Program-made: the position numbers and the translations under genes
NCBI GenBank assembly: GCA_048595505.1
Contig: JBJPGG010000004.1
Location: 5,683-69,682 of the forward strand
Origin: Methylococcaceae bacterium
GTDB lineage: Bacteria > Pseudomonadota > Gammaproteobacteria > Methylococcales > Methylomonadaceae
Direction: 5' to 3'
DNA length: 64,000 nt
Shown: in pieces, positions 41,895 to 60,200 of the stretch
Position numbering within the stretch: the first letter of the stretch is position 1
How the letters are laid out: every line of letters begins with the position of its first letter
The notes under the pieces: model-generated
What the model saw: only the letters and a program-made list of their open reading frames with translations
Told to the model about the DNA's origin: nothing
The model's database searches: none

Positions 41895-44800
41895 GTGGAT
41901 TTATCTAAAGCGTTGGGCTTGAACATTTCTGAACAAGATCCCGTTTTATTGCAGCAGAAGTTACATTTATATATTAATCTTAAATTAGCCTCTTGTGGCC
42001 AACCCACTTGTTTAAAGGGAGAGTCGGCTGACTTTTTGGCTACCGCAGATGATATGTTACGCAGCTTTGTGGAAAAAAGCCGTCAGCTTGTTTCCCATCA
42101 TTATCCTGCTGATAGGCGGATACAAGATTTTCTTGATAGTTATCTATCAGACCTAGGTCTTGAGAGTATTCCAACCCTACCCACACTTACATTCGAGTTA
42201 GACAGACATGGCATAGCGCGAGAGTTATCTTTACCTATGGGGGAAGATACTTTTAAGTCTGAATGTGTTTCCAGTTATAAAGTTAAACAAGGTGTGCTAC
42301 ATAACCCAGCGAATGATCGTAGAACTACCAAAGGGTCATTTCATATTGCTGCGGGCGGTTTACCTGTGCCCGGGGATAAAAAAGAAGTACCCAAGCAAAC
42401 CTTTGCAAGTATGTTAAAACATGCCTTGAATCCGCCTAAGGGTTTAACCTTGTTACCTTATACCGCAAATGAAGAAACCCCCGCTTATATGTTTACATCC
42501 TTATTGTTAAGGCCTACGGTATGCCCGGCAATTCCTGGTGTAGCAGAACAAAAAAGTATGGAGATTCGGTTTTTTGCACCAGGTACTTTGGTGAGTAATC
42601 TGGATTTTGTAGAAAGTATTTTTGGTAATGGAGGTAATCCAGCCTTGCCTGAATATGATGCTGGGCTGGATGTTGAGCATTGGACCGGACAAAGCGGTTG
42701 TGTGATTTTGGCCCCTCATTTAGTTAAATTAACTAAGAAAGAATTAGGTTTGCCTCATTGGGATGATGCTACTGAACGACAACGTAAAGATGCTATGTGT
42801 TGGCAGGAGTCAGAAGAGCTATACAATGATGGTCAAGCTTTTAAATTGACTGCCAGGGATGAACGAGGGGTAATTATCACAATGTTAGCGGATAATTACT
42901 TTGGTTATTGTAAAAAAGAAGTTAAAACTCAAATTGGTTACGCCGCCAATCTTTATGGTTTCTCTGAAGAAGAGCATGCCGGCGGAGCATTGGCTTTTCA
43001 TTGTCAAAATCATGGTAATGAATATGGTGCTGGGGGTGCCAGTAGAGAGGCTGGCTATAGTTTTAACGAACTGACCAAGAGCTATGGCGATTTAATGGAT
43101 GTTATGCCAGAAGGCTATGCGGTCGATAAGGAATATCCAGAGATAGTTTACGTGCCACAAGATGTAAAAATGGATGTGCCAACGCAAGCCATTACCTGGA
43201 AAAATGACAAGTTAACCTGGAACAGTGATAAGAAGACTTCTTCTTTACGTTTGCAACCAGGGAAAATATATGTAAAGCCTAATGGTTATAAATTGGAACT
43301 GATTAAGCATCCAGCTGCTCCCTCATGGCGCTTGATCGGTACAGCAGCAGAAGGTACTTTTTGTCATAAACCGAGTACTGTTTCCGGGGGAGGGAAGTCT
43401 GAAATTTCAAAATCAATCAGTGATGCGGTAATATTTAACACATTGTTTGTCAATGATTTGAACGAAGATCTAGACCGGGTGCAAGAGATTTTTGACAGGG
43501 ATTACAGTGACCGTTATAGGAAAAAACTTGATGCAGCAGACTGGGTTTCCAGTCGAGCATTATTAAGTGCTAACAGAAGTTTGGGGTCAGTGATTAAATT
43601 ACTAACACCCTCGACTGGATATACCGATGAATTCAATCAATGGCTGACAGAAATACCGCCTTATATAAGAGCATTGGTATTATTAATTAAACGGTTTTAC
43701 CAGGAAGACTGGGGTGATAGTTGGCGTACATTTTTTTCTGCTGATATTGTAGATGGATCGCCGGGACATGACCTTAAATTTGAAGGTAGACAGATTATTG
43801 CCAGTTTTTTACGTGTTGGTTTTAACGAACAAGGTGGATGGCGTACGTTTAAAGTTCGACAAGATTTTTATGCGGCTGAAAAAATACAAATGGAAGATGA
43901 TATTACCTCATCCGTGGTAGTTCCCGTCTCAATGGTCTCTAAATATATGTCAGACCAAAAGGTTGGGGAAAGTATAAAATTAACCGCCAATTGTGAGTAT
44001 CGTCTGTTTCAGCGCCCTGATGATGCTATTGTTCCTGGTTATGATAAGCAGACTGAACTTAATATGGCAGGCCCCGATAATTTCATTGCAAATTACGAGC
44101 CCTTATTTGCAGATAAACTGTCAGCAATAGTTGAAGATGTTTTAACAATGTCCAAGTTTACTGAACCTATGCATGATTTGTTGGAACAAGCATATAAGGA
44201 CGCTTCTGGAATTGTTGTTTCTTCAGCGCATCCACGAATTGTGGATGGTAAGCCAACTAAAAATCCACGTTATCTAGAGCGGCGTGCTGACGTTATTAAT
44301 CCGGTTCGAAAATATTTAGCGGATTTAGGTGTTCGCTTGCATAGCAGAATACCTTTGGGTGTGGAAGTCGTTCATCCTGTTGATGCTGTGTTGGCCGGTC
44401 GTAGAAACAATCCTCCTGAACCAGGTATACGTGCATTAGCCGTTTATAATCCCATTCATTATCAGCAATTACCTGAGTTATTTATGGATTTTATTTGTTC
44501 TTTAACAGGTAAATCACCATCAACAACGGGAGCCGGGAGTGAAGGTGCGTTAACCAAAGGTCCATTTAATGCATTAAGAGCCACTGCAGATTTGAATAAT
44601 GCATTGGTTTCTTTCATTCTGACAGGCTATGCAGGATTTTCCAGTTCAGCGGGACATATTGGCTCTCATGTCAGAGTTGATCATGATATTAGCTTATTAA
44701 TCCCTGAAATTTGGACCCGTTTAAAAACGCATGAACGCGAGCCAAATTACCTTATAGAACAGGGTTGTTTGGAAGCGCTAGAGGATTTTGAGTATGAAGG

Positions 44801-45380
44801 TCAGATGGTATTAGCCAGTCGTTTGGGTTATCGAATAACTGAGCAGTTTGTACATGAATTTATGGGTAAAATCTTTGACAATCCAAGTTCAGTGTTAACA
44901 GAAGATATTCTTAAGCCAGAAACCCAAAACTTGCATGATTATGTTGATGGTATTCATAATATTGTTGAGACACAGCAAAAAGTGGCGCAACAATATTTGG
45001 ACGATGGCAGTGTCGCAGATGCCTGCCCACCGTTACAGGCTTTGTTACATATCATGGCAACAGGGAATTATCAGGGCAAGGATGTGCATGACCCTGAGAT
45101 TAGAGAGTTATTTAGCAAACAAAGTTTGTTAGCATCAGACTGGTATCTTGAGCGTCTACAAGTTAAACAAAATAGAGATATTGCTTTATGGGTTAGACAT
45201 GTCAAGAGCTTACAAGACTTTTCTGAGTTACCAAATTATGCTGACGAAGTTGAGCGATTGAATATTAAGCAACGCCTAATTAATGCACAAGCTGAATTGG
45301 AAAGAGTAGAAAGTCCTGCTTATCTGGAGCAGATGATAGGTATGATAGGGGCAGACCCAGTCAAGCAGCCAAGACATTAG
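41895..45380 (+). CDS. Large (1161 aa) PEPCK-motif protein; candidate PPi-dependent phosphoenolpyruvate carboxykinase
   Basis: GTG start with AGGAG 7 nt upstream. YFGYCKK (aa 335-341, nt 42897-42917) resembles the PEPCK YGGEMKK motif. The P-loop-like TVSGGGKSEIS (SGGGKS at nt 43383-43400) resembles the PckA kinase-1a motif GLSGTGKTTLS. The roughly 131 kDa size class matches the reported ~130 kDa PPi-PEPCK subunit. Confidence 0.5.
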   Translation: MDLSKALGLNISEQDPVLLQQKLHLYINLKLASCGQPTCLKGESADFLATADDMLRSFVEKSRQLVSHHYPADRRIQDFLDSYLSDLGLESIPTLPTLTFELDRHGIARELSLPMGEDTFKSECVSSYKVKQGVLHNPANDRRTTKGSFHIAAGGLPVPGDKKEVPKQTFASMLKHALNPPKGLTLLPYTANEETPAYMFTSLLLRPTVCPAIPGVAEQKSMEIRFFAPGTLVSNLDFVESIFGNGGNPALPEYDAGLDVEHWTGQSGCVILAPHLVKLTKKELGLPHWDDATERQRKDAMCWQESEELYNDGQAFKLTARDERGVIITMLADNYFGYCKKEVKTQIGYAANLYGFSEEEHAGGALAFHCQNHGNEYGAGGASREAGYSFNELTKSYGDLMDVMPEGYAVDKEYPEIVYVPQDVKMDVPTQAITWKNDKLTWNSDKKTSSLRLQPGKIYVKPNGYKLELIKHPAAPSWRLIGTAAEGTFCHKPSTVSGGGKSEISKSISDAVIFNTLFVNDLNEDLDRVQEIFDRDYSDRYRKKLDAADWVSSRALLSANRSLGSVIKLLTPSTGYTDEFNQWLTEIPPYIRALVLLIKRFYQEDWGDSWRTFFSADIVDGSPGHDLKFEGRQIIASFLRVGFNEQGGWRTFKVRQDFYAAEKIQMEDDITSSVVVPVSMVSKYMSDQKVGESIKLTANCEYRLFQRPDDAIVPGYDKQTELNMAGPDNFIANYEPLFADKLSAIVEDVLTMSKFTEPMHDLLEQAYKDASGIVVSSAHPRIVDGKPTKNPRYLERRADVINPVRKYLADLGVRLHSRIPLGVEVVHPVDAVLAGRRNNPPEPGIRALAVYNPIHYQQLPELFMDFICSLTGKSPSTTGAGSEGALTKGPFNALRATADLNNALVSFILTGYAGFSSSAGHIGSHVRVDHDISLLIPEIWTRLKTHEREPNYLIEQGCLEALEDFEYEGQMVLASRLGYRITEQFVHEFMGKIFDNPSSVLTEDILKPETQNLHDYVDGIHNIVETQQKVAQQYLDDGSVADACPPLQALLHIMATGNYQGKDVHDPEIRELFSKQSLLASDWYLERLQVKQNRDIALWVRHVKSLQDFSELPNYADEVERLNIKQRLINAQAELERVESPAYLEQMIGMIGADPVKQPRH

Positions 45381-45556: not shown

Positions 45557-48331
45557 GTGACAAAGGTAATTAAAATCCTTTTTTTTTGTTGTGTGATTTT
45601 TCTATTACTCATACCCTTTGGAGATTTTTCTCTCGAGGGTAAGAAACCTCACCCATCAGAACTACCCGAATCGCAGCCCATACAATTAACGGCTGAAGAA
45701 CAAACATGGCTGGAGACGCATCAGCCTATTCGTATTGCATTTGATGGTTTTTTCCCTCCCTATAGTTTTATTGCCGAGTCTGGCCAAATATCGGGTATTT
45801 CATATGATACTATCCAATTAATAAGTCGAAAGCTTAAGATTTATGTCCAAATAGATGACAGAGTTGTGTGGAAAGATATTTATAACGCGACGCTTAATAA
45901 GGAAATTGATGTCATAGCTACTATGGTCAGAAGACCTGAACGCGATTTACAATTCGTTTTTACCAAGCCTTATGTTTTTAAGTCATTGGTTATCATCACT
46001 CATAACAGCAATGCAGAGATAAACGATCGCAGTAATTTGACTGGGAAAACTGTTGTATTGATGAAAAACTATCGATATTCCCAACGTGTTTTAAAAGACT
46101 TTCCCGGTATTACGCCTTATTACGTGGAAGATATGCATGAAGCACTTAATATTATTGAAACTAAACAGGCTGATGCGGCCATTGGTTTTTTTGCTGCCAG
46201 TTATTTTTTACAAAACAAGTATCTATTAAATGATATCAAGTTTGCCGCTTTTTATGACCGTAACAGTGCAAACGAAAGTATTGCTGTGCGCAATGATTGG
46301 CCCATATTGGTTAGTATTTTCCAAAAAGGACTGGATGCAATAACCGAACAAGAAAAACAAATAATAAACAGTAAATGGCACCCGCCTACAGAACTGCCAT
46401 TTGACTATGAAATGATTTTTAAAGTTGTGGCTGTTTTTCTGTTGGTTTTATTTATATTACTGCTATGGATTGGGCAAATAAATCGTCAAAACCGGCGCAT
46501 CAAACTAGCAAAAAAAAAATTACTTAAATCGAACAGAGAGTTAAATGAGTTAAAAAAAAACCTTGAAAATCAGGTGGTAAAACGTACCGAACAATTGCAA
46601 AACAGTGAGCAAAAATACCGTAGTCTGGTTGAGAATTTACATGATGAATATTTTTTTTATCAGCATGACCTGGATGGTACGTTTACCTACTTAAGTCCTT
46701 CAATTACCTCCATCCTGGGCTATAGTGTGGATGATTTTTTACAACACTCTAATACCTATTTAACGGATCACCCTGATAATAGAAAGATAGATATGTATAC
46801 TGCCCGGTGTATCAATGGCGAAAAATTACCCGCTTATGAAGTGGAGTTATTTGATAGTAAAAGCCATAAACGTAGCTTTTCAATACTAGAAACAGCCGTT
46901 TATGATGAGGATGGTGTGTGTGTTGGCGTTGAAGGAATTGCACATGATATTACTTTAATAAAGCAGACTCGGGAGCGGTTGAACTGGTTATCTTATTATG
47001 ATGATTTGACTGGCTTGGCAAATAGACGGCTATTTAAGGACCGATTTGAGCAAGTCATCATTTTATCGCATCGTCATCAGCAAAAACTGGCTTTGTTATT
47101 TTTGGATCTTGACCATTTTAAACAGGTCAATGACAGTTTAGGGCATGCTGTGGGTGATGAGGTTCTTAAAGAAACGGCATCAAGATTACAAGCACAATTG
47201 CGCGATTCTGATATCTCTGCACGAATGGGCGGGGATGAATTTACTCTAATTTTACCAGACACGGATGCTGATGCTGCAGAAATTGTAGCTAAAAAGATCA
47301 GACATAGTTTATCATTGCCTTATTATTCAAATGATCAGCAATTTATACTGGGTGCCAGTATAGGAATTGCTATTTATCCAAAGGATGGAAATGATACCGA
47401 GACCTTGTTGCAACATGCAGATAACGCAATGTATTTTGCCAAAAAGGCGAAAACAGGCTATGCATTTTGTTCATCTGATCAGCAGGAAATAAGCAGTCGA
47501 AGTCATATACTTGAACAGGCTTTGCGTAAAGTGCTTGACCAACAATGTTATGAAGCAGACTTTGAATTATATCTTGTGTTTCAATCTAAATATTGTCTAA
47601 AAAACAATTGTATATTAAGTTATGAAGCGTTAATACGCTGGCATCACCCTGAATTAGGCATGGTTTCTCCCCTTGAATTTATTCCTATTGCGGAAGAAAC
47701 CGGATTAATCCCTGAACTTACTCATTGGGTGATGACCCGAGTTTGTTTGCAGGCGTTACAGTGGTCTGGGAAAGGGTTTGATTTTGGTCGAATCGATGTG
47801 AATATTTCAGCGGTTGAGTTGATTAATTTAGAGTTGGCAAAAAATATTATTGAGCAAATTCGATCTTCTGGAGCATTACTGGAATGGATAGGTATTGAAA
47901 TCACTGAAACTGCGTTAATGAAAGCGCCTAGTGTAGCGGCCAGAGTGTTGCAACAACTAAAGAATGCTGGTGTGTTAATTTCGATTGATGATTTTGGTAC
48001 AGGCTATTCATCATTATCCTATCTTAAAAATTTACCCGTTACATTTATTAAAATAGATCAATCATTTATTCATAATTTGCTGGATAGTCGAGAAGATCAG
48101 GCGGTTGTTCAAGCTGTAGTGTCAATGTCGCATGCATTGGGTAAAAAAGTGGTTGCAGAAGGGGTGGAAACACTGGAGCAAATACAATATTTAATTGAGC
48201 ATGGCTGCGATATTATTCAAGGAAACTGGTTATCCAAGCCTGTTTTAGCAGAAGAGGTTAGTTTAGCTAAGAATGTTGGCTACTTTCCATTAGCAAGCAG
48301 GGTTCAGGCTATTTCAACCCTAAAAGATTAA
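45557..48331 (+). CDS. Membrane sensor with a periplasmic solute-binding domain, PAS, GGDEF and EAL domains (c-di-GMP turnover)
   Basis: 924 aa with a GTG start. In order: signal/TM, an SBP_bac_3-like domain, a second TM, a coiled coil, PAS, GGDEF (RMGGDEFTLIL), and EAL (YEALIRWHHPELG ... DDFGTGYSSLSYL). Confidence 0.9.
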   Translation: MTKVIKILFFCCVIFLLLIPFGDFSLEGKKPHPSELPESQPIQLTAEEQTWLETHQPIRIAFDGFFPPYSFIAESGQISGISYDTIQLISRKLKIYVQIDDRVVWKDIYNATLNKEIDVIATMVRRPERDLQFVFTKPYVFKSLVIITHNSNAEINDRSNLTGKTVVLMKNYRYSQRVLKDFPGITPYYVEDMHEALNIIETKQADAAIGFFAASYFLQNKYLLNDIKFAAFYDRNSANESIAVRNDWPILVSIFQKGLDAITEQEKQIINSKWHPPTELPFDYEMIFKVVAVFLLVLFILLLWIGQINRQNRRIKLAKKKLLKSNRELNELKKNLENQVVKRTEQLQNSEQKYRSLVENLHDEYFFYQHDLDGTFTYLSPSITSILGYSVDDFLQHSNTYLTDHPDNRKIDMYTARCINGEKLPAYEVELFDSKSHKRSFSILETAVYDEDGVCVGVEGIAHDITLIKQTRERLNWLSYYDDLTGLANRRLFKDRFEQVIILSHRHQQKLALLFLDLDHFKQVNDSLGHAVGDEVLKETASRLQAQLRDSDISARMGGDEFTLILPDTDADAAEIVAKKIRHSLSLPYYSNDQQFILGASIGIAIYPKDGNDTETLLQHADNAMYFAKKAKTGYAFCSSDQQEISSRSHILEQALRKVLDQQCYEADFELYLVFQSKYCLKNNCILSYEALIRWHHPELGMVSPLEFIPIAEETGLIPELTHWVMTRVCLQALQWSGKGFDFGRIDVNISAVELINLELAKNIIEQIRSSGALLEWIGIEITETALMKAPSVAARVLQQLKNAGVLISIDDFGTGYSSLSYLKNLPVTFIKIDQSFIHNLLDSREDQAVVQAVVSMSHALGKKVVAEGVETLEQIQYLIEHGCDIIQGNWLSKPVLAEEVSLAKNVGYFPLASRVQAISTLKD

Positions 48332-48484
48332 TGGAATTTATTTTTACCCTCTTTTGAAGATCATTTATAAAAAGTGATAGGCTGTTGTTATATAATGAGC
48401 TATCAGAATGTTTGGTTGAGTCTATGTCTTGAGGAAATATTCTGTCTCTTTCTATTTATTTGACACTATATAATAAAGTTGGCA

Positions 48485-49177
48485 ATGGATCTTCAGCATT
48501 CTTCTGGAAACGACGCTCAAACTCAATTTTCAAGGAAAGAAATGTTAGACATTAGTGATGGCATAAGTAAAAGTTTTGCACCTGTTATTGCTGCTGAGAT
48601 ACTAGAACAAGATGAAGGGATACAGTTAGCTAGTCAAGATCTGCTCGAAGTAAGTCAAAATATTAGTTTGTATTTTGCACCGAGCATGTCATCAAACGCT
48701 AACAAACTTGTTGTATTACCTATCGATCCTCAGCATATTTATGCTTATTGGCATTTGAATGATAATCCCGAAAAATCAATGTCTCAACGTATGTTGAATG
48801 ACGAGTTGACGCTTAGAGTTTATTCACAGCCAGAGCAAAAGAAACAAGCAGTCCACATAAGCCCTCTGGTTGAAATTCCAATCCATGATTTTGATTCACG
48901 ACATAGAATTAGATTGCCAGAAGCAGAAAATGCAACAGCTTACTCTGTCAGCATAGAAGCAGCGGTTAAAAAAAATGACTTTGTTTCATTGATAGACTCC
49001 AATAATACCTATACTTTTCAAGGATCATTGGAGCAGAAAGAACGTCATGAAACTGAAGGTTATTCAGAGCAATATGATGATGTTGAAACTAAATTAATAG
49101 ATAGAGAGGCTTCTCGCAAGGGCTCTTCTTCAGTTTATGCAAGTTTAACGTCTTCTGCTAAAGGGAAGAAAAGATAA
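48485..49177 (+). CDS. DUF4912-like protein (family commonly found next to GH57 genes)
   Basis: The core VVLPIDPQHIYAYWHL is typical of DUF4912 as I recall it. The N-terminus has a duplicated motif (LDISDGISKSFAP / LEVSQNISLYFAP). ATG 48485 is preferred over TTG 48479. The gene ends 5 nt before the GH57 gene. Confidence 0.55.
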   Translation: MDLQHSSGNDAQTQFSRKEMLDISDGISKSFAPVIAAEILEQDEGIQLASQDLLEVSQNISLYFAPSMSSNANKLVVLPIDPQHIYAYWHLNDNPEKSMSQRMLNDELTLRVYSQPEQKKQAVHISPLVEIPIHDFDSRHRIRLPEAENATAYSVSIEAAVKKNDFVSLIDSNNTYTFQGSLEQKERHETEGYSEQYDDVETKLIDREASRKGSSSVYASLTSSAKGKKR

Positions 49178-49182
49178 CAGCG

Positions 49183-50775
49183 ATGAAAAAAGGATTCCTC
49201 AGTATCATACTTCATGCACATTTACCTTATGTGCGACATCCAGAGCATGATAGTTTTTTTGAAGAGATCTGGTTGTTTGAAGCAATGACTGAGTGCTATA
49301 TCCCATTATGTGACGTCTTTGAACGTTTACAAAAAGATGATGTTAATTATCGCTTAACACTGTCCTTATCACCTACGTTAATCTCAATGTTGCGGGATGA
49401 TTTATTACAAACGCGTTACCAAAATCATCTGAACAAACAAATTGAATTGGCTGAAAAGGAAATCATCAGAACTCTTAATCAACCGCCACTGCAAAAATTA
49501 GCACGTTTATATAGGCGTTTTTTTATAAGTACACGTAATACCTATAATAAATATAATTGTGATTTATTAATGGCTTTTAAAAAGTTCCACGCGCAGGGGC
49601 ATCTTGAATTAATTACCACTGCAGCGACCCATGGTTTTTTACCATTACTTAGCATCAGTGAAACGGCTGTCCGCAATCAGATTGAAGTAGCGGTTGAGAT
49701 GTTTGAATCCAATATTGGTTTTGCACCTACTGGTTTTTGGATTCCAGAATGTGCTTATTATCCAGGGTTGGAAGTGATTTTAGGTAATGCGGGTATCAAA
49801 TACTTTTTTACTGATACGCATGGTGTAATGGAAGCAAGTGAGACGCCTGATAATGGGGTGTATGCACCACTAGATTGTGGTAATGGAGTGATGGCTTTTG
49901 CACGTGACCCTAATGTATCTCAGCAGGTTTGGAGTGCCGAACAAGGTTATCCTGGTGATGTAAATTATCGTGAATACTATAGTGATATTGGATTTGATTT
50001 GGATATGGGGTATCTTGCACCTTATATACTGGATGGACAAAACCGTATCAGTACAGGCATTAAGTATCACCGAATTACTGGTGAGGGCTTGAAAAAAGAA
50101 TGTTACCAGCCGAAAAAAGCAAAACTTAAAGTAAAGCAAGATGCTGATGATTTTGTTAGTAAGTGTCAGCAACAAATTGATGACTTGAGTCTTGGTATGG
50201 ACAGGCCACCTGTAATTGTGGCACCTTATGATGCTGAACTGTTTGGACATTGGTGGTTTGAGGGGCCTTGCTGGCTGGAAATGGTGCTAAGAAAAGTCGA
50301 TGAAAGCAACAATATTGAAACAATAAGTTGTGGGGATTATTTAAAAAGACAAGGTTCTCATCAGGTTGCGATACCTGCATCTTCCACCTGGGGGGAAGAT
50401 GGCTATTGCAGTTATTGGGTTAATGAAGAAAATGACTGGATTTATCCTTTTTTGCACAAAGCAGCTGATCAAATGGAACAATTAGTGATCGATTTTAAAG
50501 GGGTAACCGTATCATCGATGCAAAAACGCGCCTTAAATCAGGCAGTAAGGTCTATTTTGTTAGCCCAGGCATCGGATTGGCCATTTATTATGAAGTCGGG
50601 GACTACAACTGACTATGCTAAAAAAACAATAACAGATCAATTGGCAAGGTTTAACTATCTACATGAGAGTATACGTAAGAACAAGATTGATGAACGCTAT
50701 TTGTGTGCATTGGAATTGATGGATAATATTTTTCCTGATGTTGATTTTCGTAAATATAAGTCTATTGAGTTATAG
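49183..50775 (+). CDS. GH57-family 1,4-alpha-glucan branching enzyme
   Basis: 530 aa, collinear with the Thermus GH57 branching enzyme as recalled: LHAHLPYVRH, ELITTAATHGFLPLL, GFWIPECAY, VWSAEQGYPGD, APYDAELFGHWWFEG, LAQASDWPF. Confidence 0.88.
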   Translation: MKKGFLSIILHAHLPYVRHPEHDSFFEEIWLFEAMTECYIPLCDVFERLQKDDVNYRLTLSLSPTLISMLRDDLLQTRYQNHLNKQIELAEKEIIRTLNQPPLQKLARLYRRFFISTRNTYNKYNCDLLMAFKKFHAQGHLELITTAATHGFLPLLSISETAVRNQIEVAVEMFESNIGFAPTGFWIPECAYYPGLEVILGNAGIKYFFTDTHGVMEASETPDNGVYAPLDCGNGVMAFARDPNVSQQVWSAEQGYPGDVNYREYYSDIGFDLDMGYLAPYILDGQNRISTGIKYHRITGEGLKKECYQPKKAKLKVKQDADDFVSKCQQQIDDLSLGMDRPPVIVAPYDAELFGHWWFEGPCWLEMVLRKVDESNNIETISCGDYLKRQGSHQVAIPASSTWGEDGYCSYWVNEENDWIYPFLHKAADQMEQLVIDFKGVTVSSMQKRALNQAVRSILLAQASDWPFIMKSGTTTDYAKKTITDQLARFNYLHESIRKNKIDERYLCALELMDNIFPDVDFRKYKSIEL

Positions 50776-50809: not shown

Positions 50810-52315
50810 ATGGATAAAATCCAATTACTTTATATAGAAAATGTTATCACCAGGAAAAAAAGTCAGGTTCAGCAGCAATTGACTTTTTTTATGCTGGTAG
50901 AAAATATTAGCTATGATAAGCAAGTAGATGTTGTGTGGGCGGGTGAAGATGGTTGTTGGCACACCTTAGCGGTTAAATATCACTGTGTGCAAGGACATGA
51001 TAAGGAATATTGGCGTACACAGGTTGTTATTACGCTGAATGATGAGCAGTCACTTCCAGGCAATATTCAGTTTGGGTTGCGTTTTCGGGTTCATGGTTTT
51101 GAATACTGGGACAATAACAAGGGCCTTAATTATAGTAGTGATGCTGATTCGGGTATTAAGCTGGCAAATAGCCAAGTGATACAAAATATTGGTTTTGAAA
51201 GCTATTTGAATGATGGGCAGAATAACGTTCCTGTCACTGTTGCAGTAGACCAATCTTTTAATGCTGAAACAGTGACTATTCACTGGACGACTGATCGTTG
51301 GAATACCACTCAATATGAACACTGCCAATTAAAAGGAACTTATTGGAATAAAGCTTTGCATAGTAATGCCAGAAACCCAAATCAATATGGAATACAGATA
51401 TGGGAAGGGCGAATTAACAATGGTGATTCGTTTAGGTTGCAATATAGTATCTGTTGTGAAAGCCATGGACAGATAGTATGGGAAAATAATTACGGCAGTA
51501 ATTATTCTTTCCAAAGGGAACAGTTAAAAGTCTTGATTCTTAATTTACATTGTTATCAGGAAGAAAACCAGGATGAAAAGTTTTCAAAAATAGCTGAAGC
51601 GATTGATGATCTGGACGTTGACATTGTTTGTCTGCAGGAAGTGGCTGAGTTGTGGAATGATGGCCATGGTGACTGGGAATCAAATTCAGCGAGAATAATT
51701 AATGAACGCTTAAAGCTACCTTTTCATATTCACACGGACTGGTCGCATTTGGGGTTTGATAAATACAGGGAAGGTGTTGCTATTTTAAGCCGCTATCCTT
51801 TATCTGATCATGACTCCGGGTATGTATCTGATAGTCATGATGCGTTTAGTATACATTCCAGAAAAGTAGTGATGGCTCGCGTTCATGTACCTTATGTTGG
51901 CCCAGTTAATGTATTTTCCGCTCATTTAAGCTGGCTGGAAGATGGTTTTCAGGAACAATTCCAGAGATTGCATGAATGGGCCGAAACGCGTCATAGTGGT
52001 GATGTTAAAGCAACAATGTTATGTGGCGATTTTAATATTACTGCCGGAACAAGTGGTTATGAACTGGTAGTTGATTCAAATGAATACGATGATCAGTATT
52101 TAGCAGCAAATGAGCAGGGTGTATTTGAAAAAATATTTAGAGTCAATGATTCACATTGGCAAAGTTTATTGGCCGATGACTACCGGATAGACTATATTTT
52201 TATGAATAAGACCAGTGAGTTACAGGTCACTTCTGCTAAAGTGGTATTTACAGATCAGGACTATGGACAAGTGTCAGACCACTGCGGTTATTTTATGACA
52301 TTTGAACCAAAATAA
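50810..52315 (+). CDS. Tandem CBM21-like starch/glycogen-binding modules fused to an endonuclease/exonuclease/phosphatase (EEP) domain
   Basis: Two modules, about aa 5-110 and 120-234, end in FEYWDNNKGLNYS and IVWENNYGSNYS, the CBM21 hallmark WDNNxGxNY. The EEP motif series is present: LNLHCYQEE, VCLQEV, CGDFN, RIDYIF, VSDHCGY. Confidence 0.7.
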   Translation: MDKIQLLYIENVITRKKSQVQQQLTFFMLVENISYDKQVDVVWAGEDGCWHTLAVKYHCVQGHDKEYWRTQVVITLNDEQSLPGNIQFGLRFRVHGFEYWDNNKGLNYSSDADSGIKLANSQVIQNIGFESYLNDGQNNVPVTVAVDQSFNAETVTIHWTTDRWNTTQYEHCQLKGTYWNKALHSNARNPNQYGIQIWEGRINNGDSFRLQYSICCESHGQIVWENNYGSNYSFQREQLKVLILNLHCYQEENQDEKFSKIAEAIDDLDVDIVCLQEVAELWNDGHGDWESNSARIINERLKLPFHIHTDWSHLGFDKYREGVAILSRYPLSDHDSGYVSDSHDAFSIHSRKVVMARVHVPYVGPVNVFSAHLSWLEDGFQEQFQRLHEWAETRHSGDVKATMLCGDFNITAGTSGYELVVDSNEYDDQYLAANEQGVFEKIFRVNDSHWQSLLADDYRIDYIFMNKTSELQVTSAKVVFTDQDYGQVSDHCGYFMTFEPK

Positions 52316-52339: not shown

Positions 52340-53941
52340 ATGGAAATAGCAGAACATTATGCTTGGCCTGTTCGAGGTGAATTAGGTGGCTCATTTGCAC
52401 GAGTTAATGATTTCAATCATGAGTTTTATGTACGCTGGGGCAAGATAGATTTTGATATGCACCAGGGTGTTCAGGTTAATCTTAAAGTTATCCTGAAGGT
52501 GTATAGTAATGACGGTATCTGTGAAACTTATGTTATAGATTCTGATGCCTATGATGTTGAATGGAATAGACATAAGCGAAGAACGCGCGATTTTTATATA
52601 CATCCGTATTCCAGTACTTATGGACAGGTTAACTGTGTAAAGTTTTCCTTTATTGTGCATAAGGATGGACGTTCTATTGCATCGGAAAAAGAATATATTT
52701 TTATGGATTGGCCTCAATTACAGGGTAATCCAGATGAACATCAGTTTAGAGATATTTCTGCTGATCACACCACAGATAACCATTATCGAACTTATGAATT
52801 AAATGCAGGCGAATTGCAGAGCGATGTCGACTGGTTTAATCATCATTTTGAATCATTAGGGCTGGTTCCTAAATTCACCAAAGGGCAATTAAATCATCCT
52901 TATCACCCTAAAAGTTATATTCATCATTTGATCGATAAAGTGATGCATTGTAAATGGGAAAACCCTGATCGGCTTTGTACCATTAAAGTCAGTGTGGATT
53001 GTATTGATGATGCGGATTTTGTAACTCACTTGGTTCATGCCAGTGAACAAGGGGTGTGGGTTCAGTGCATTGTTGATTGGCGCAAGATGACTTTGACTAA
53101 TAGCCACAGTTACGCGCGATTAAAACGTGCAGGTATAGAGTTGATCGGAGTGGTTTGTAGTCCTGATCATCATTTGATTGAAGTTGAGCCAGATATGCAT
53201 ACCAAATTCATTATTTTTAATGATGAGGATTGCATCATGGGCTCTTTTAATATTACCTTTGATCGCTGGTGGGCTAATTGGGAGTCAGGCATGACATTCC
53301 ATTCTAAAGGTGTGTGCCGGTTAATGGATAATATTTTTCAGAGTCAACGCGGCGGTGTAATTCAGCAATATGGAGTTGATCCTCACAGCCAGTTTAATTT
53401 GCTATACACTTTTGGCCAGCACACCATGGAAAATGGTGCGAATTATCTTCCTCATCATGCTATTTTAGGTGAAATTAATCGAGCCCAACATTCAATAAAA
53501 GTTACTTTATTTTTGATCGGTGAATTATTGGGAGACCATCAGGATAGCGTAATTTCGGCTTTGATTAATGCCAAAAACAGAGGTGTTCATGTTCACCTAT
53601 TATTAAATGGACATATTGCCAGACAGGGTAAAGTTGGCGTAGTACGATCTATGGATGATGAATTAAGTCAGCCTTTATTGCCAGCAGTAGATCAATTGAG
53701 ATTTGCTGGTGTTACCGTTGGCTTAGTCTATGGGAAGGATGACCATGAGGTACCTTATTCACCTATCCATTCAAAGTATTGCATTATAGATGACTATATT
53801 GTGATTGATGGAAGTTTTAACTGGTATAACACGTCTGTTTTTTCACATGATTTAGTTGTAATTGCCGCTAATCATGAAGTGGCAAAACCCTATTTACATG
53901 AGTTTGAAGAAATACAGCATGCATTTAGGGTTTATTATTAA
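52340..53941 (+). CDS. Soluble phospholipase D superfamily protein with two HKD motifs and an unassigned N-terminal region of about 280 aa
   Basis: HKD-1 is HTKFIIFNDEDCIMGSFN (nt 53198-53251) and HKD-2 is HSKYCIIDDYIVIDGSFN (nt 53768-53821, a perfect HxK(x)4D(x)6GSxN). No hydrophobic TM segment is visible. Confidence 0.75.
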   Translation: MEIAEHYAWPVRGELGGSFARVNDFNHEFYVRWGKIDFDMHQGVQVNLKVILKVYSNDGICETYVIDSDAYDVEWNRHKRRTRDFYIHPYSSTYGQVNCVKFSFIVHKDGRSIASEKEYIFMDWPQLQGNPDEHQFRDISADHTTDNHYRTYELNAGELQSDVDWFNHHFESLGLVPKFTKGQLNHPYHPKSYIHHLIDKVMHCKWENPDRLCTIKVSVDCIDDADFVTHLVHASEQGVWVQCIVDWRKMTLTNSHSYARLKRAGIELIGVVCSPDHHLIEVEPDMHTKFIIFNDEDCIMGSFNITFDRWWANWESGMTFHSKGVCRLMDNIFQSQRGGVIQQYGVDPHSQFNLLYTFGQHTMENGANYLPHHAILGEINRAQHSIKVTLFLIGELLGDHQDSVISALINAKNRGVHVHLLLNGHIARQGKVGVVRSMDDELSQPLLPAVDQLRFAGVTVGLVYGKDDHEVPYSPIHSKYCIIDDYIVIDGSFNWYNTSVFSHDLVVIAANHEVAKPYLHEFEEIQHAFRVYY

Positions 53942-54010: not shown

Positions 54011-56104
54011 TTATGAATTAATATTTTCAAAAGCAACAATGGTTTTTTCATTAACCAAAAATGTATCAGTTGTTACTGGCTTTTGATTGGGCCTGCGGAT
54101 AATATCTTTGGGTGAATCTTGTGATGTATCTACTGATAAACACCATGTTTTTCCTTCGATTTCAGGTAATTCAATAGTCGTTTTTTGTTCAGACATATTG
54201 ATAATAACGTGTAAGTCAGGTTCATTTTCTCCAGTACCAGCAAGAGTGAAAGCCAGCAAACGCGTTTCAGGGTCTTCCCACCGTGGTGTGTCTAATTTTG
54301 CACCATGCCATGAAATATCTTTAATACCTCTGGATTCGATTATGTTACCTGTCAAAAAACGTCTGCGCATGATTGATGCATGGCGTTTACGCAAGGCGAT
54401 CATTTGTTGAACAAAGCGTAGCATATTTGCATTTTCATTCACCATCTCCCAGTCAATCCAGGTTAGTTCGTTATCCTGACAATAACCGTTATTATTACCA
54501 TCCTGTGAATTGAGTATTTCATCACCTGCGAGAATCATGGGAACGCCTTCGCTAAGCAACAAAATAGCAAATGCATTTTTAGCTTGTTTTTTTCTAAACC
54601 CTAGAACACTTCGGTCGTTTGTTGGACCTTCTATGCCGCAATTGGAGCTTATATTATTGTTACAACCATCTCTGCTTTCTTCACCATTCGCTTCATTATG
54701 CTTTTGGTTATAACTAAATAAATCATTTAAAGTAAAACCATCATGACAGGTGATGAAATTGATGCTGTTAATAGGTAAACCATCCTGGTGAGCATACAAA
54801 TCGCTACTACCTGAAATACGTGTGGCAAGTTCTTGTATTTTACCTGAATCGCCACGCAAAACTTCGCGTACTACATCTCTGTACTTACCATTCCATTCGG
54901 CCCAGCGGTGGCCCGGAAAGCTACCAACTTGATAAAGACCAGCGGCATCCCATGCTTCGGCAATGAGTTTAGTTTGTTCTAGTTGTTGAGAAAGCTCAAT
55001 GCTCCAAAGTACAGGAGGATCTTCAAGCACTGCTCCACCTTCACCTCTGGCCAGGGCACTGGCTAAATCGAAACGAAAACCATCAACATGCATTTCTCTT
55101 ACCCAGTATTCAAGACTACTGGTAATAAAAGCAGCAACTAGAGGGTGATTAGCATTGACTGTATTACCACAGCCGGTATAGTCATGCAGTACGCTTTTGT
55201 CGTTCTTATCGTGATGGTAAAAAATATTTTCCCCAATGCCACGAAAGTTGATGATGGGTCCACCTATGCCAGCTTCAGATGTATGGTTGTATACAACATC
55301 TAAAATAATGCCGATTTTTGCAATATGCAGTGCTTTGACCAAATCACGGAATTCTTGTACATGCGTCCCTTGTTCAGGAGTCACACAGTAGCCTGGGTGC
55401 GGGCTAAAAAAACTGTGGGTGCTATAACCCCAGTAATTCTTTAGACCAAGGTTAATAGTGCCTTCTGGAGCATCCTGTTCATCAAAAGCCATAATCGGTA
55501 GTAACTCAACATGAGTAATGCCCAATTTTTTTAGATACGGGATTTTTTCAATCAAACCCGAAAATGTACCTGGGTTTTTAACATTAGCAGAAGCATGGCG
55601 GGTAAAGCCACCTACATGTAATTCGTAGATAACTGATTTTTCACTGCTGATGCGTAAAGGTTTGTCACCTTCCCAGTCATAAGCATCATCATCGACTACC
55701 ATACAGCGCATGGCTGTTGCGCTATTATCACCTGGTGAACAGGCAGCTTGGCGGTCCCAGTACATGTCGCATACCACACGGGCCCAGGGATCTATTAGTT
55801 CTTTTTCTTTGTCAAAATGTAAGCCGGCTTCTTTGGGTTCGTTCGACCCATCAATGCGCCAGCTGTACCAGCTTCCTGCTGTTAATCCAATAACATAAAC
55901 ATGCCATGAGTAAAAAGTTCTGTTGATATTTCGTTCTAAGTGTATGGTTTGAAAAGGTTGTTTACTACTTGCTTTTTCAAATAATAATAGTTCAACACTG
56001 GTTGCATGACGCGTAAAAATCGAGAAATTAACCCCGCCTTCATTCGGCTTAGAGCCTGAAGGATAGGATTGACCAGGTTTGATTTTGTATTCTTTATTTT
56101 GCAT
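54011..56104 (-). CDS. glgX: Glycogen debranching enzyme GlgX (GH13 with N-terminal CBM48-type module)
   Basis: 697 aa with GVNFSIFTRHATSVELLLF and GH13 regions DVVYNHT, DGFRFDLAS, AEAWD, FITCHDGFTLND. Confidence 0.9.
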   Translation of the reverse strand: MQNKEYKIKPGQSYPSGSKPNEGGVNFSIFTRHATSVELLLFEKASSKQPFQTIHLERNINRTFYSWHVYVIGLTAGSWYSWRIDGSNEPKEAGLHFDKEKELIDPWARVVCDMYWDRQAACSPGDNSATAMRCMVVDDDAYDWEGDKPLRISSEKSVIYELHVGGFTRHASANVKNPGTFSGLIEKIPYLKKLGITHVELLPIMAFDEQDAPEGTINLGLKNYWGYSTHSFFSPHPGYCVTPEQGTHVQEFRDLVKALHIAKIGIILDVVYNHTSEAGIGGPIINFRGIGENIFYHHDKNDKSVLHDYTGCGNTVNANHPLVAAFITSSLEYWVREMHVDGFRFDLASALARGEGGAVLEDPPVLWSIELSQQLEQTKLIAEAWDAAGLYQVGSFPGHRWAEWNGKYRDVVREVLRGDSGKIQELATRISGSSDLYAHQDGLPINSINFITCHDGFTLNDLFSYNQKHNEANGEESRDGCNNNISSNCGIEGPTNDRSVLGFRKKQAKNAFAILLLSEGVPMILAGDEILNSQDGNNNGYCQDNELTWIDWEMVNENANMLRFVQQMIALRKRHASIMRRRFLTGNIIESRGIKDISWHGAKLDTPRWEDPETRLLAFTLAGTGENEPDLHVIINMSEQKTTIELPEIEGKTWCLSVDTSQDSPKDIIRRPNQKPVTTDTFLVNEKTIVAFENINS

Positions 56105-56600: not shown

Positions 56601-57053
56601 TTATTTATGACACTCAATTTTAAATGAGCGAATTTTGTGATAAAAATTATACTCACCAAAGCTATGAACCTTAGAGTTAGGGTGAAGAATAATTTCTGAG
56701 TCTTCCAAGATATCCTGTTTAGTAATACCTAAGGATTTCATTAACACTGGATGGTTGGCCATTTCTTTTAATGTTAATTTGAAATTTTTATTTTCAAACA
56801 CAGTGACCGTTGCTTTGGGTCCAATCAGAATGCTTTCAATTCGTTTGTCCCAATTTTCTTTGTTTATTTTTAATAAATTTTTCTTTTGAGTGGGGCCATT
56901 AAGACGAAAGTGTTTACCCTTAAATTGACCATCTTCAAAAAAATCTGCCCAACAGTCTTTACTTTTTGCATTTATGGTTGATCCATAGCCTAATAACAAA
57001 GTTAGAATGAGTAATGTTTTAAAGCCACGAAATATTAATTTTAACTGTTTCAT
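56601..57053 (-). CDS. Secreted small protein, possibly of beta/gamma-crystallin-like fold
   Basis: From ATG 57053, MKQLKLIFRGFKTLLILTLLLGYGSTINA is a signal peptide. The FFEDGQFKGKHF segment resembles the crystallin Y/FxxxxF/YxG motif. The upstream 53 codons of the track ORF cover a REP-like element and are rejected. Confidence 0.45.
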   Translation of the reverse strand: MKQLKLIFRGFKTLLILTLLLGYGSTINAKSKDCWADFFEDGQFKGKHFRLNGPTQKKNLLKINKENWDKRIESILIGPKATVTVFENKNFKLTLKEMANHPVLMKSLGITKQDILEDSEIILHPNSKVHSFGEYNFYHKIRSFKIECHK

Positions 57054-57115
57054 TTCTATTTCCTCATGGTTGGATAGCTTTCTAGTAGCTTGGCAACTTT
57101 GCTTTGATGAGTACT

Positions 57116-57194
57116 GTAGAGCGGACTTCAGTCCGCAATTTCTGATATGACGTACTACATAGAATTGTTCATAGCGGACTGAAGTCGGCTCTAC
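57116..57194. repeat. REP-like pair of inverted 21-nt palindromic units
   Basis: GTAGAGCGGACTTCAGTCCGC (57116-57136) and its inverted copy GCGGACTGAAGTCGGCTCTAC (57174-57194) differ by 1 mismatch and are separated by a 37-nt spacer. Each unit also contains its own GCGGAC-N4-GTCCGC type hairpin. Confidence 0.7.
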
Positions 57195-57293
57195 AACGAA
57201 TCTATTTATCAAACCAAAGTTAGCTACTTATCTCACAATATCAGCTTTCAGCATAGTTTTTTTTACGTTGGTTTGGGGAAATGGCTTTAAATA

Positions 57294-60200
57294 TTAATTT
57301 TGACATTTGCCATAACCACCTCCGCCTGGTGTTTCAATTTGAATACTATCATTTTTGTGTAAATTAACCTGGGTGCAAGCATCAACTGTAATGACTTCTC
57401 CATTAGCTTTAATCACAGTATTCATGCCAACTTGTGCGGCTAAACCATGCTGAACTCCAAAAGGTGCGTGTACACGATGACTGGATAAAATTGTGGCAGA
57501 CATGGATTCAAGGAATTTGATTTTTCGCCTGACACCATTGCCTCCTTTCCACAGGCCTGCTCCACCCGTATTCTGACGAATTGAGAACTCCTCCAATAGT
57601 ACGGGGAAGCGCCATTCTAAAACCTCAGGGTCGGTGATTCTGGAATTGGTCATATGAGTTTGAACAGCATCACTTCCATTAAAGCCATACCCCGCTCCCG
57701 CACCTCCGCAGATGGTTTCATAGTATTGATAGTTATCATTTCCAAAGGTAAGGTTGTTCATAGTCCCTTGCGAACCTGCCAAAACACCTAAAGCACCATA
57801 AAGAGCGTCCACGATAGTTTGAGATGTTTCTACATTACCTGCAACAACAGCGGCAGGATATTGTGGATTGAGCATGGAGTTTTTGGGAATAATAATGTTG
57901 AGTGGTTGTAAGCATCCAGCATTCAAAGGAATATCATCTGTTACTAAAGTTCTGAAAACATAAAGTACTGCCGCTTTACATACAGCAGCAGGGGCATTAA
58001 AGTTGCTGAGTTGTTGTGTTGAAGACCCGGTGAAATCAATAGTGGCTGTTCTTAAAGCCTTATTTATCTGGATTTTAACGACTATTTTGGCGCCATTATC
58101 AAGTGTATTAATAAACTGGCCATCAGTTAATGAGGGTAAAATATTGCGCACACATTCTGCTGCATTATTCTGTACATGTTGCATATACTGTAAAACAGTT
58201 TGTAGTGTATATTGTTCTACCATTTTCCTTAACTCAAACATGCCTTTATTATTGGCCGCAATTTGAGCTTGTAAATCGGCAATATTTTGTTCAGGATTAC
58301 GTGCGGGGTAGGGTGATGATTCCAGCCAGCGTCTGACTTTCTGTTCTTGAAACACCCCCTTTTTTACTATGATCATTCCCATACTGAGTACGCCTTCTTG
58401 TTCAATGTGCTGACTATCTGCAGGCATTGAACCTGGGCTTATGCCTCCCACATCTGCATGATGACTGCGTGAGGCAATAAAGAATAATAAACGACTGTTA
58501 TCTACGCTGAAAACAGGTGTAACGACTGTAATATCGGGTAAATGGGTGCCCCCATGATAAGGTGAATTTAATAAATAAACTTGCTCTGCTTTAATCGATA
58601 CCTGATCCGAATTAAGTAATGCTAAAACACTTTCTCCCATAGACCCTAGGTGAACTGGAATATGGGGCGCATTAGCAATTAACTGGGCATTGTTATCAAA
58701 CAAGGCGCAGGAAAAATCCAGCCGTTCTTTAATGTTGACTGAATAAGCCGTTTTTTGTAATACAAAGCCCATTTGTTCTGCTATCGACATAAATAACTTG
58801 TTAAATATTTCCAGCATAACAGGGTCAGCTGTAGTGCCAACTGCCAGTTGGCGTTTGATAGGCTGGGTACGAGTTAGAACTAAGTCATTAGCTGCTGTGA
58901 TTTTACCTTCCCAACCGGGTTCTATGACTATCGTTGCAGTTGGTTCAACAATAATTACCGGTCCTTTTAAAATCACAGCTTGAGTTAATGACTCGCGTTG
59001 ATAAACAGGAGTTTTATGAGATCTATTCTCGGTAAAGATGTCCGTGAACAATGCAGGGATAGCATGATGATTTGATGGTTGAGTTAAAATTTCCTGGTCA
59101 GTTGAATTCTGACCAATAATTTCTACCGATAAGGACTCGATAATGATCGCTTTATCGGTAAAAACAAAGCCAAATTGTTGTTGATATTGTTTCTGAAAAC
59201 TCAGTAACATGCTGGCTTTATCAGCGAATAATACAGCTAATGAAGTATCTGTTCCAAAATAGCGTAAGTTGACTCTAAAGATGCTGGAAATTTCCAGGTC
59301 ACTTATTTGCAGCAACATTTCAGCGCGTCCCTGTTGCTCCAATATTAATAACTGATCTTTCAGTTGCGTATAACTGGCTTCTTCCCATGGTTGTTCAAGG
59401 GCAGAATCTTTTAATAATCTCAAATCTGCCAGCCCCATGCCATAGGCCGATAGTATGCCAGAAAATGGGTGTAACATAATGGTTGTTATGCCCAGGCGGT
59501 CAGCTACTTTACAGGCATGTTGTCCGGCAGCAGCCCCATAACAGCATAGAGTATATTCAGATACGTTATAGCCCTTTTGTACCGATATTTTTTTAATGGC
59601 AGTTGCCATGTTTTCGACAGCAATATTGATAAAGCCTTCGGCAACTTGTTGTGGACTACGTTGGTCTGCGCAACTGTTTTTTATTTGTGCTGCCAATTGA
59701 ACGAACAGTTGTTCAACTTTCTCTTTATCTAATGATAAATCCCCATGCTCACCAAATATGGCAGGAAATAAAGGCAATTTCCCCAGCATGATATTGGCAT
59801 CGGTAACGGTTAGAGGGCCTCCTCGACGATATCCAGCAGGACCAGGGTTAGCGCCGGCAGACTCAGGGCCTACGCGATAACGAAGACCATCAAAGAACAA
59901 CAGCGAACCGCCGCCTGCAGCAACGGTATGAATATTCATCATCGGTACACGCATTCTTATACCTGCTACTTCGGTCTGGTAACTGCGTTCCAATTCTCCC
60001 GCATAATGCGCAACATCGGTAGATGTTCCACCCATATCAAAGGCAATAATTTTATTAAACCCTGCCTTTTTCGCGGTTTCAACAGCGCCTACAATACCAC
60101 CAGCAGGACCTGACAAAATACTGTCTTTACCCTGAAAGTTTTGTGCTGCTGTTAATCCACCGTTGGATTGCATGAACATAATTGTAGGGGGGGTAACATG

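Follow-up and report, generated by a model that had tools for sequence, protein, structure and literature searches.

A candidate glycogen-targeted phosphatase of the MapP lineage, paired with a PLD-family gene in glycogen operons of methanotrophs

Introduction

In plants and animals, covalent phosphate governs how soluble and how branched starch and glycogen are and how they turn over, and loss of the phosphatases involved leads to starch-excess phenotypes in plants and to Lafora disease in humans. To our knowledge, the known glucan phosphatases are all DSP enzymes, and bacteria are without them. Laforin (CBM20 plus DSP), SEX4 (DSP plus CBM48) and LSF2 join a starch- or glycogen-binding module to a phosphatase, work in the storage-glucan compartment and remove glucan phosphate so that other enzymes can act. 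Here we describe a bacterial gene with a layout of the same kind. It lies in a stretch of 64,000 nucleotides (hereafter the window, in whose coordinates all positions are given) from Methylococcaceae bacterium (GenBank assembly GCA_048595505.1, contig JBJPGG010000004.1, positions 5,683 to 69,682 of the forward strand) and encodes a 501-aa protein in which two CBM21 modules precede an EEP phosphoesterase domain. We present this protein as a candidate glycogen-tethered sugar-phosphate phosphatase, together with the PLD-superfamily gene that follows it.

Two EEP enzymes that act on phosphorylated sugars offer a comparison for the catalytic domain. BT3783 of Bacteroides thetaiotaomicron acts on phosphorylated yeast mannan and would be a precedent for the dephosphorylation of polysaccharide-bound sugars by an EEP enzyme. 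MapP of Enterococcus faecalis (EC 3.1.3.90) has as its substrate a disaccharide phosphate, maltose 6'-phosphate, and its gene lies beside a maltose phosphotransferase system (PTS) transporter gene, as summarised in PMC3737437. For the binding modules, CBM21 is in animals the glycogen-targeting module of PP1 regulatory subunits (PMC9582199), and the alpha-glucan ligand residues of the Rhizopus CBM21 and of PTG are known from mutagenesis and crystallography (PMC3398936; PMC9582199).

Results

Tandem CBM21 modules with conserved ligand sites

The product of the ATG-initiated gene is 100% identical to a protein (P0001) of a Methylococcaceae metagenome-assembled genome. A preliminary description of this DNA had read the open reading frame (ORF) at 50810-52315 as two CBM21 modules followed by an EEP domain, and Pfam and motif scans agree. 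Both CBM21 hallmarks that it named are present, IVWENNYGSNYS at aa 222-233 as described and FEYWDNNKGLNYS at aa 97-109, one residue away from the 98-110 given. The EEP motifs it listed were likewise all located, at residues 244-252 (LNLHCYQEE), 273-278 (VCLQEV), 406-409 (GDFN), 460-464 (IDYIF) and 489-491 (SDH); the last is the catalytic SDH, and an additional SDH at 332-334 is irrelevant. At least 80 species-level genomes encode the full-length protein, with 64-81% identity, which takes the CBM21-CBM21-EEP arrangement beyond chance.

Pfam CBM_21 (PF03370) matches the whole protein in two stretches (E=1.8e-16, 60.8 bits), and each module on its own exceeds the gathering score of 28.9 bits, with 39.8 bits for aa 1-115 (E=6e-10) and 36.0 bits for aa 120-237 (E=9e-9). 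Profile comparison shows the modules to be relatives of one another (hhalign probability 86%, E=5e-6). By sequence, the PDB match of module 1 is the CBM21 of Rhizopus glucoamylase (2djm) and that of module 2 the CBM21 of PPP1R3B (2eef). An AlphaFold model built from 36 homologues (pLDDT 82, pTM 0.69) has all-beta segments at about residues 4-110 and 124-236, with pLDDT of about 80-94, followed by an alpha/beta domain at 239-500. Structure prediction and fold search thus bore out the EEP part of the architecture, and the binding modules were seen only as all-beta segments, the EEP domain having dominated the whole-model fold search. The absence of a signal peptide, also claimed earlier, holds as well. 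A Kyte-Doolittle scan of the first 45 aa found no hydrophobic leader (maximum over 11 residues 1.39), and residues 4-16 are modelled as a strand of the first beta-sandwich.

The known ligand residues were transferred through an alignment of the two modules to the CBM21 segments of Rhizopus glucoamylase and PPP1R3B. In the Rhizopus module, site II consists of a Y32/F58 clamp with N29, K34 and E68, and site I of W47, Y94, N96 and N101 (PMC3398936); site II of PTG comprises N177, F180, K182, Y203 and D214 (PMC9582199). In our alignment, module 1 has N32, Y35, K37, Y57 and E66 at the positions of Rhizopus N29, Y32, K34, F58 and E68, and among 12 family members these residues are conserved without exception or nearly so. 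Its site I residues W50, W100, N102 and N107 correspond to Rhizopus W47, Y94, N96 and N101. Module 2 keeps site I (W164, W224, N226 and N231), and the equivalent of Y83 is missing from both modules. With both sites of module 1 and site I of module 2 kept, there is good ground for expecting module 1 to bind glucan, and it is plausible that module 2 does so too.

The modules thus share with the CBM21 of Rhizopus oryzae glucoamylase and of the PP1 targeting subunits (PTG, GL and GM) both the Pfam family and these ligand sites. Unlike them, they occur in tandem in a bacterium, and their fusion partner is a phosphoesterase, where the others have a glycoside hydrolase or a PP1-binding motif. In module 2, site II is lost and an insertion is present, SNARNPNQY (aa 185-193, nt 51362-51388 (+)), in which S185-N191 and Y193 are invariant among 36 family members. 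The insertion includes a conserved Arg and is found in neither the Rhizopus nor the PPP1R3 CBM21 modules.

An EEP domain of the MapP lineage

Pfam Exo_endo_phos (PF03372) matches residues 259-491 with 58.4 bits against a cut-off of 24.5 (E=1.1e-15). The catalytic set N245, E277, H372, D407, N409, D461, D490 and H491 is invariant in the 36 family members, and also across distant relatives when MapP-family, stand-alone and CBM-fused proteins are aligned together. In a search of PDB sequences to E<=1, the only match of the domain is 3TEB (3teb_A), an EEP protein of Leptotrichia (E=3.6e-25); no nuclease or sphingomyelinase appeared even at that threshold. The fold search gave the same top match (E=1.7e-19, TM 0.80, 28% identity). 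The next best is weaker by eight orders of magnitude: 4RUW, Tdp2, BT3783, sphingomyelinases and APE1 follow at E>=1.5e-11 and 14-20% identity, and all of the top 50 are EEP-fold enzymes. BT3783 (PDB 4c1r, titled mannosyl-6-phosphatase; E=1.8e-10) has the EEP fold in common with our protein. It differs in that it is only 16% identical, acts on another sugar, lacks a CBM and serves extracellular or periplasmic glycan foraging.

A sequence search with 3TEB retrieved 263-aa proteins of Leptotrichia, Streptococcus, Gemella and Pasteurellaceae. One of these relatives, which represents a large cluster and is 56% identical to 3TEB (P0485), is encoded in an operon of the order GntR | malQ-glgP-EEP-PTS(EIICB), the setting described for MapP. 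The automated name given by JGI to the 3TEB relatives, and to many members of our family, is maltose 6'-phosphate phosphatase. Our EEP domain aligns with P0485 from end to end (31% identity, E=9e-28). Beyond the catalytic set, the residues H247, E251, N292, H313, E321, G322, R351, R459 and Y462 do not vary between MapP-family proteins and our protein, a second set that we infer to be clade-specific. Together, the 3TEB matches, the MapP operon context and the shared invariant residues place the EEP domain, as judged from sequence and model, in the MapP lineage of sugar-phosphate phosphatases and not among EEP nucleases or sphingomyelinases. In a rough neighbour-joining tree without support values, our clade stands apart from the MapP clade within this lineage.

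The comparison with MapP therefore has two sides. The family to which MapP and 3TEB belong shares with our protein an EEP sub-lineage, with about 30% identity over the whole domain, and the catalytic and clade-specific residues; the MapP substrate is a phosphorylated alpha-1,4-glucoside, and by analogy that of our protein may be likened to it. Unlike the MapP-type proteins, which are single-domain (about 263-285 aa) and encoded next to a maltose PTS gene, our protein has two additional CBM21 modules, belongs to its own clade, lies within glycogen operons and is coupled to a PLD-family gene. Neither MapP hallmark, the single domain or the linkage to malT, is found here, and no PTS gene occurs in the operon of the window or in the gene families that recur around the gene in 83 loci (see below).

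A conserved gene pair whose commonest home is the glycogen operon

In the window, the gene is the third of four on the same strand, in the order DUF4912, GH57 branching enzyme, CBM21-EEP and PLD, with gaps of 5, 34 and 24 nt (Table 1). A scan that took one genome for each GTDB species turned up relatives in 307 of them, and we examined the best 80 loci. Almost all of these are labelled as Methylococcales methanotrophs or unclassified relatives, with hosts that include Methylobacter, Methylomarinum, Methylomonas, Methyloprofundus, Crenothrix, Methylovulum and symbionts of mussels and sponges. Among cultured strains, Methylobacter tundripaludum SV96 and Methylobacter luteus have both the EEP and the PLD gene; the partner is also encoded by Methylomonas species.

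All ORFs in 83 loci were then clustered, without prior assumptions, to obtain a census of neighbours. The PLD gene is the most frequent (75 of 83 loci), followed by the GH57 branching enzyme (41, in each case upstream of the EEP gene), DUF4912 (40, together with GH57), GH13 GlgB/GlgX-type genes (30, within 10 kb), GlgA (21), GlgC (19), a second GH57 (15) and GH77 MalQ (10). The remaining sizeable clusters were shadow ORFs in other frames (clusters 4, 5, 7, 9, 11 and 13), short clusters (14, 15 and 17) and families in 6-8 loci. Of 43 loci whose flanks each extend 5 kb or more, 33 carry at least one glycogen gene there.

Of the 73 loci with enough downstream sequence, 71 have the PLD gene directly downstream of the EEP gene in the same orientation. 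The other two (L025 and L034), both from Methylococcales, are real exceptions: they keep DUF4912-GH57-EEP, and no PLD gene or fragment was found within 10 kb downstream. Their partner may be elsewhere in the genome or may have been lost. The partner is conserved at 70-92% identity, compared with 64-81% for the EEP protein.

The full-length CBM21-CBM21-EEP protein also occurs in Ca. Methylophosphatis (Sterolibacteriaceae; 55% identity) and Kiritimatiellia (43%). In both, a PLDc_2 gene of 531 or 536 aa directly follows the EEP gene and no glycogen genes are near. Since the adjacency of the pair is kept there, what is conserved as a unit is the EEP-PLD pair, most often housed in a glycogen operon. 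In Ca. Methylophosphatis the pair (L084:6976-12117) is flanked by an S6PP (sucrose-6-phosphate-phosphatase-like) gene and a PfkB sugar kinase gene.

The partner shares two intact HKD motifs and the fold with the HKD PLD superfamily (bacterial PLD 7e0m, vaccinia F13, PLD3, Nuc/Zucchini), and its fold matches are generic (7e0m, F13, PLD1/3; AlphaFold model of moderate confidence, pLDDT 67.7). It differs from the characterised members in that it has no close relative among them, appears soluble, carries an orphan N-terminal beta-sandwich and is genetically coupled to CBM21-EEP and glycogen genes. No hydrophobic segment was found at its N-terminus. The N-terminal domain has many residues that are invariant across three lineages; it gave no Pfam match and, with a 15-sequence profile, no PDB-sequence match at E<=10. 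A hidden CBM in this position gained no support, with hhalign giving less than 1% probability against both CBM21 modules and the whole-model fold search returning only PLD-domain matches.

Table 1. Coordinates of the operon, the convergent glgX gene and the encoded domains and motifs
Feature	Coordinates	Strand	Evidence and remarks
DUF4912 protein	48479..49177	+	First gene of the apparent operon; Pfam DUF4912, E=3.3e-13
GH57 1,4-alpha-glucan branching enzyme	49183..50775	+	Pfam Glyco_hydro_57 and BE_C; ends 34 nt upstream of the EEP gene
CBM21-CBM21-EEP gene	50810..52315	+	501 aa; stop codon within the coordinates; candidate glycogen-tethered sugar-phosphate phosphatase
CBM21 module 1	50810..51145	+	aa 1-112; both ligand sites look intact; Pfam, 2djm match, all-beta model
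CBM21 module 2	51179..51517	+	aa 124-236; site I kept, site II lost; Pfam, 2eef match
EEP catalytic domain, MapP lineage	51518..52312	+	aa 237-501; Pfam, 3teb_A sequence and fold match
PLD-superfamily partner	52340..53941	+	533 aa; two Pfam PLDc_2 matches, 118 bits; two HKD motifs
Partner N-terminal orphan beta-sandwich	52340..52777	+	aa 1-146; predicted model, pLDDT ~80
Partner HKD motif 1	53198..53251	+	H287/K289/D297, GSFN 301-304; invariant
Partner HKD motif 2	53768..53821	+	H477/K479/D484, GSFN 491-494; invariant
GlgX glycogen debranching enzyme	54011..56104	-	TIGR02100, 678 bits against a cut-off of 640.9; convergent with the operon

Fusions of the EEP clade to starch-binding modules

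We sampled 90 representatives with a complete domain of this EEP clade, one per 50%-identity cluster. Of these, 44 are stand-alone proteins, 13 have CBM21-like N-termini without signal peptides and 33 carry other extensions, most of them with signal or lipoprotein leaders. The fusions include CBM21 + Kelch + EEP (P0302), CBM25 + EEP with CBM25 above the Pfam cut-off (P0347) and CBM25/26-like + EEP + X25 + CBM58-like (P0266); two further proteins have weaker CBM25/26 matches (P0345 and P0365), and many other relatives have Ig-like or unassigned modules. In a rough tree without support values, the starch-binding-module fusions are scattered over separate branches. Starch-binding modules thus seem, on this sequence comparison, to have been recruited several times to the clade, which would tie it to alpha-glucans independently of the operon. 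The secreted relatives with CBM25/26-like modules might be phosphatases that work outside the cell on starch from the diet or the environment. The contigs of these CBM25/26-fused relatives and of the stand-alone ones were short or gave no informative gene neighbourhood.

No protein in which EEP and PLD are fused (a Rosetta stone) was found among 150 representatives. Several relatives have other features. P0331 (1630 aa) combines a MapP-like EEP domain with an adenylate/guanylate cyclase, an AAA_16 STAND ATPase and MalT-like TPR repeats, and could be a sugar-phosphate-sensing signalling protein. A 483-aa CBM21 + EEP member of the clade (P0256) is recorded under an assembly of the bdelloid rotifer Didymodactylos carnosus and could reflect horizontal transfer into the rotifer or bacterial contamination. 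Three proteins of about 264 aa (P0371, P0388 and P0389) are related to the N-terminal half of our protein and have two CBM21 matches, with no other recognised domain and no catalytic one.

Other genes of the window

The GH57 protein of the operon matches the NCBIfam branching-enzyme models at E of about 1e-97, under their equivalog cut-offs. The listed TTG start of the DUF4912 gene is probably wrong, an in-frame ATG at 48485 being likelier, and we found no paper on the function of DUF4912. A scan of the operon for promoters and terminators gave counts not above shuffled expectation.

The remaining genes of the window are chromosomal housekeeping genes. An ORF at 41895-45380 (+) encodes 1161 aa without a Pfam family and is a pyrophosphate-dependent phosphoenolpyruvate carboxykinase, with full-length PDB matches to 6k31 and 8e1u (E=0). 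Just upstream of the operon, the 924-aa product of 45557-48331 (+) shows, by eye, GGDEF (RMGGDEFTLIL) and EAL (EALIRW) motifs and an N-terminal membrane or periplasmic part, and looks like a cyclic di-GMP signalling protein. On the other side, the 203-aa product of 56601-57212 (-) has a beta/gamma-crystallin-type domain (Crystall_3, E=1.1e-6) with an apparent hydrophobic leader and is syntenic in one further locus (L002), and a 1199-aa ORF at 57294-60893 (-) resembles, by eye, a fused hydantoinase/5-oxoprolinase. The GC skew of the window is strongly positive (about 0.1-0.3) over the first 54 kb or so, in which the + strand carries nearly all genes, and about zero or negative beyond.

Discussion

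A possible route for the removal of phosphate from glycogen

The preliminary description had proposed a carbohydrate-tethered phosphoesterase acting on cytoplasmic glycogen, a reading that gains support from the ligand-site residues, the MapP lineage, the glycogen operon and the lack of a leader; the MapP link, the near-obligatory PLD partner and the operon context are additions to it. We lean, with limited confidence, towards the 501-aa protein being a cytoplasmic, glycogen-targeted glucosyl-phosphate phosphatase, an assignment that draws on sequence comparison and on analogy with MapP. The gene pair is a strong candidate for the first bacterial system outside the DSP family that removes phosphate from glycogen.

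In the mechanism we propose, the protein would dock on cytoplasmic glycogen or its dextrins through CBM21 site II and site I contacts, and its Mg2+-dependent EEP domain would hydrolyse phosphate monoesters on alpha-1,4-linked glucosyl residues. By analogy with MapP the likeliest target would be the C6 phosphate, possibly at or near non-reducing ends. Removal of the phosphate would keep the glycogen usable for the GH57 branching enzyme encoded upstream, GlgX and GlgP. According to PMC13011383, branching enzymes, a bacterial one among them, have a lower affinity when the glucan carries phosphate, and the placement of the gene beside a branching-enzyme gene fits a phosphatase role for this reason. 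For the PLD partner, our preferred guess is that it would cleave a phosphodiester-linked substituent on the same polymer, after which the EEP enzyme would remove the leftover monoester; it might instead install the modification, or merely be recruited to glycogen by the CBM21 protein. All of this is inferred, from the binding of glucan and the hydrolysis of monoesters to the phosphate position, the polymer as substrate and the role of the partner.

Several points weigh against this proposal. Whether bacterial glycogen is phosphorylated has been stated in a 2025 paper to be an open question (PMC13011383), and neither the window nor the recurrent neighbours of the 83 loci include a kinase or dikinase family. 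Ten of the 43 well-flanked loci have no nearby glycogen gene, the Methylophosphatis and Kiritimatiellia copies among them. In the protein itself, module 2 is without the primary site II, with N151 and L174 aligned at those positions, identity to MapP-type proteins is only about 30%, and the EEP sequence alone does not distinguish monoesterase from diesterase chemistry. The tight linkage to a PLD gene suggests that the substrate may in truth be a phosphodiester or a compound that has not been thought of so far. As for the fusions in relatives, most CBM25/26 matches lie near or below the Pfam cut-offs, and the tree over which the fusions scatter is a rough one.

Alternative explanations

The protein could act on small soluble phospho-sugars, such as maltose-6'-phosphate or phospho-maltodextrins set free as glycogen is broken down, with CBM21 only concentrating the enzyme at the granule, a reading that we consider unlikely yet worth keeping in view. 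The characterised relative MapP acts on a disaccharide phosphate, according to PMC3737437. The EEP domain is MapP-like over its full length, and the automated JGI name points the same way. Methanotrophs, however, would not be expected to import maltose, and with no PTS in the operon or among the neighbours of the 83 loci a MapP-type source of maltose-6'-phosphate is not apparent. Phospho-dextrins must themselves derive from phosphorylated glycogen, so that for these the explanation differs from ours in substrate size only, and two tandem CBMs together with repeated, independent CBM fusions point to targeting of the polymer.

An extension of the glycogen phosphatase proposal, to which we give about the same low credence as to the small-sugar enzyme, is that CBM21-EEP and PLD form a prokaryotic phospho-modification system for storage glycogen, in which the HKD enzyme installs (by a transphosphatidylation-type reaction) or cleaves a substituent and the EEP enzyme erases the monoester. 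If true, this would be a reversible bacterial glycogen phosphorylation cycle, equivalent to that of plant GWD/SEX4 or animal laforin and run by two unrelated enzyme folds.

Less probable still is that the EEP and PLD proteins are phosphodiesterases acting on nucleic acid or membrane lipid, with CBM21 anchoring them to granules or binding another ligand. Both superfamilies include nucleases and lipid phosphodiesterases, and the fold matches extend to Tdp2, APE1 and sphingomyelinases for the EEP domain and to Nuc, NucT, Zucchini, PLD3 and phospholipase D for the partner. In DNA repair, Tdp1 (PLD superfamily) and Tdp2 (EEP) show that these two folds can serve one task. The nuclease and sphingomyelinase matches are, however, at 14-18% identity and at least eight orders of magnitude weaker in E than 3TEB, none of these enzymes is found by sequence in the PDB at E<=1, and the residues specific to the MapP-family clade are present. 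The neighbourhood consists of glycogen genes, not of repair or lipid genes, and both N-termini lack a hydrophobic segment.

That the protein is a non-catalytic glycogen scaffold which recruits the PLD enzyme or others, in the manner of the CBM21-bearing PP1 targeting subunits, seems very unlikely. CBM21 does target PP1 regulatory subunits to glycogen in animals (PMC9582199), and the partner has no recognisable CBM of its own, but the EEP catalytic residues are invariant in the family and in distant relatives, which speaks for a working enzyme that might recruit the partner in addition. We rejected, as least credible of all, the idea that a DrmC-like PLD nuclease and an EEP nuclease act together here as a toxin or in defence against phage. 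The partner's weak, single-domain match to DISARM DrmC (PADLOC E=1.6e-11; NCBIfam 37 bits against a cut-off of 133) reflects generic HKD-domain similarity far under the curated cut-off, while the EEP protein has no PADLOC match, the recurrent neighbours include no other defence genes and the chromosomal position by glycogen genes is conserved in at least 80 species, unlike that of a mobile defence island.

Comparison with glucan phosphatases and significance

The parallel with eukaryotic glucan phosphatases that had been drawn for this architecture holds, by analogy, for the fusion of a binding module to a phosphatase, and the catalytic fold is a different one. With laforin, SEX4 and LSF2 our protein may also share the storage-glucan compartment and the removal of glucan phosphate for the benefit of other enzymes, a likeness that is here a proposal. 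The catalytic fold and chemistry are unrelated, the binding module is of family CBM21, the host is a bacterium and there is an extra PLD partner. Pfam gives only CBM_21 and Exo_endo_phos for our protein and no DSP domain of the PTP superfamily; it therefore stands outside the laforin/SEX4/LSF2 family and could only be a functional analogue.

In the literature we found no description of a CBM21-EEP fusion, of the gene pair, of 3TEB or of a prokaryotic glucan phosphatase. A large review on alpha-glucans (PMC11046441) is silent, in its accessible portion, on MapP, on CBM21 and on glucan phosphatases, and in the databases the family carries automated names only. What is new here is thus a MapP-type phosphatase turned candidate glucan phosphatase, with a new, near-obligatory partner.

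The conserved pair in glycogen operons makes the question of phosphate on bacterial glycogen directly testable. If the proposal is true, it would mean convergent evolution of glucan phosphatases and a first function for an orphan PLD-family enzyme, and it could matter for carbon storage in methane oxidisers and in phosphate- or glycogen-accumulating organisms of wastewater.

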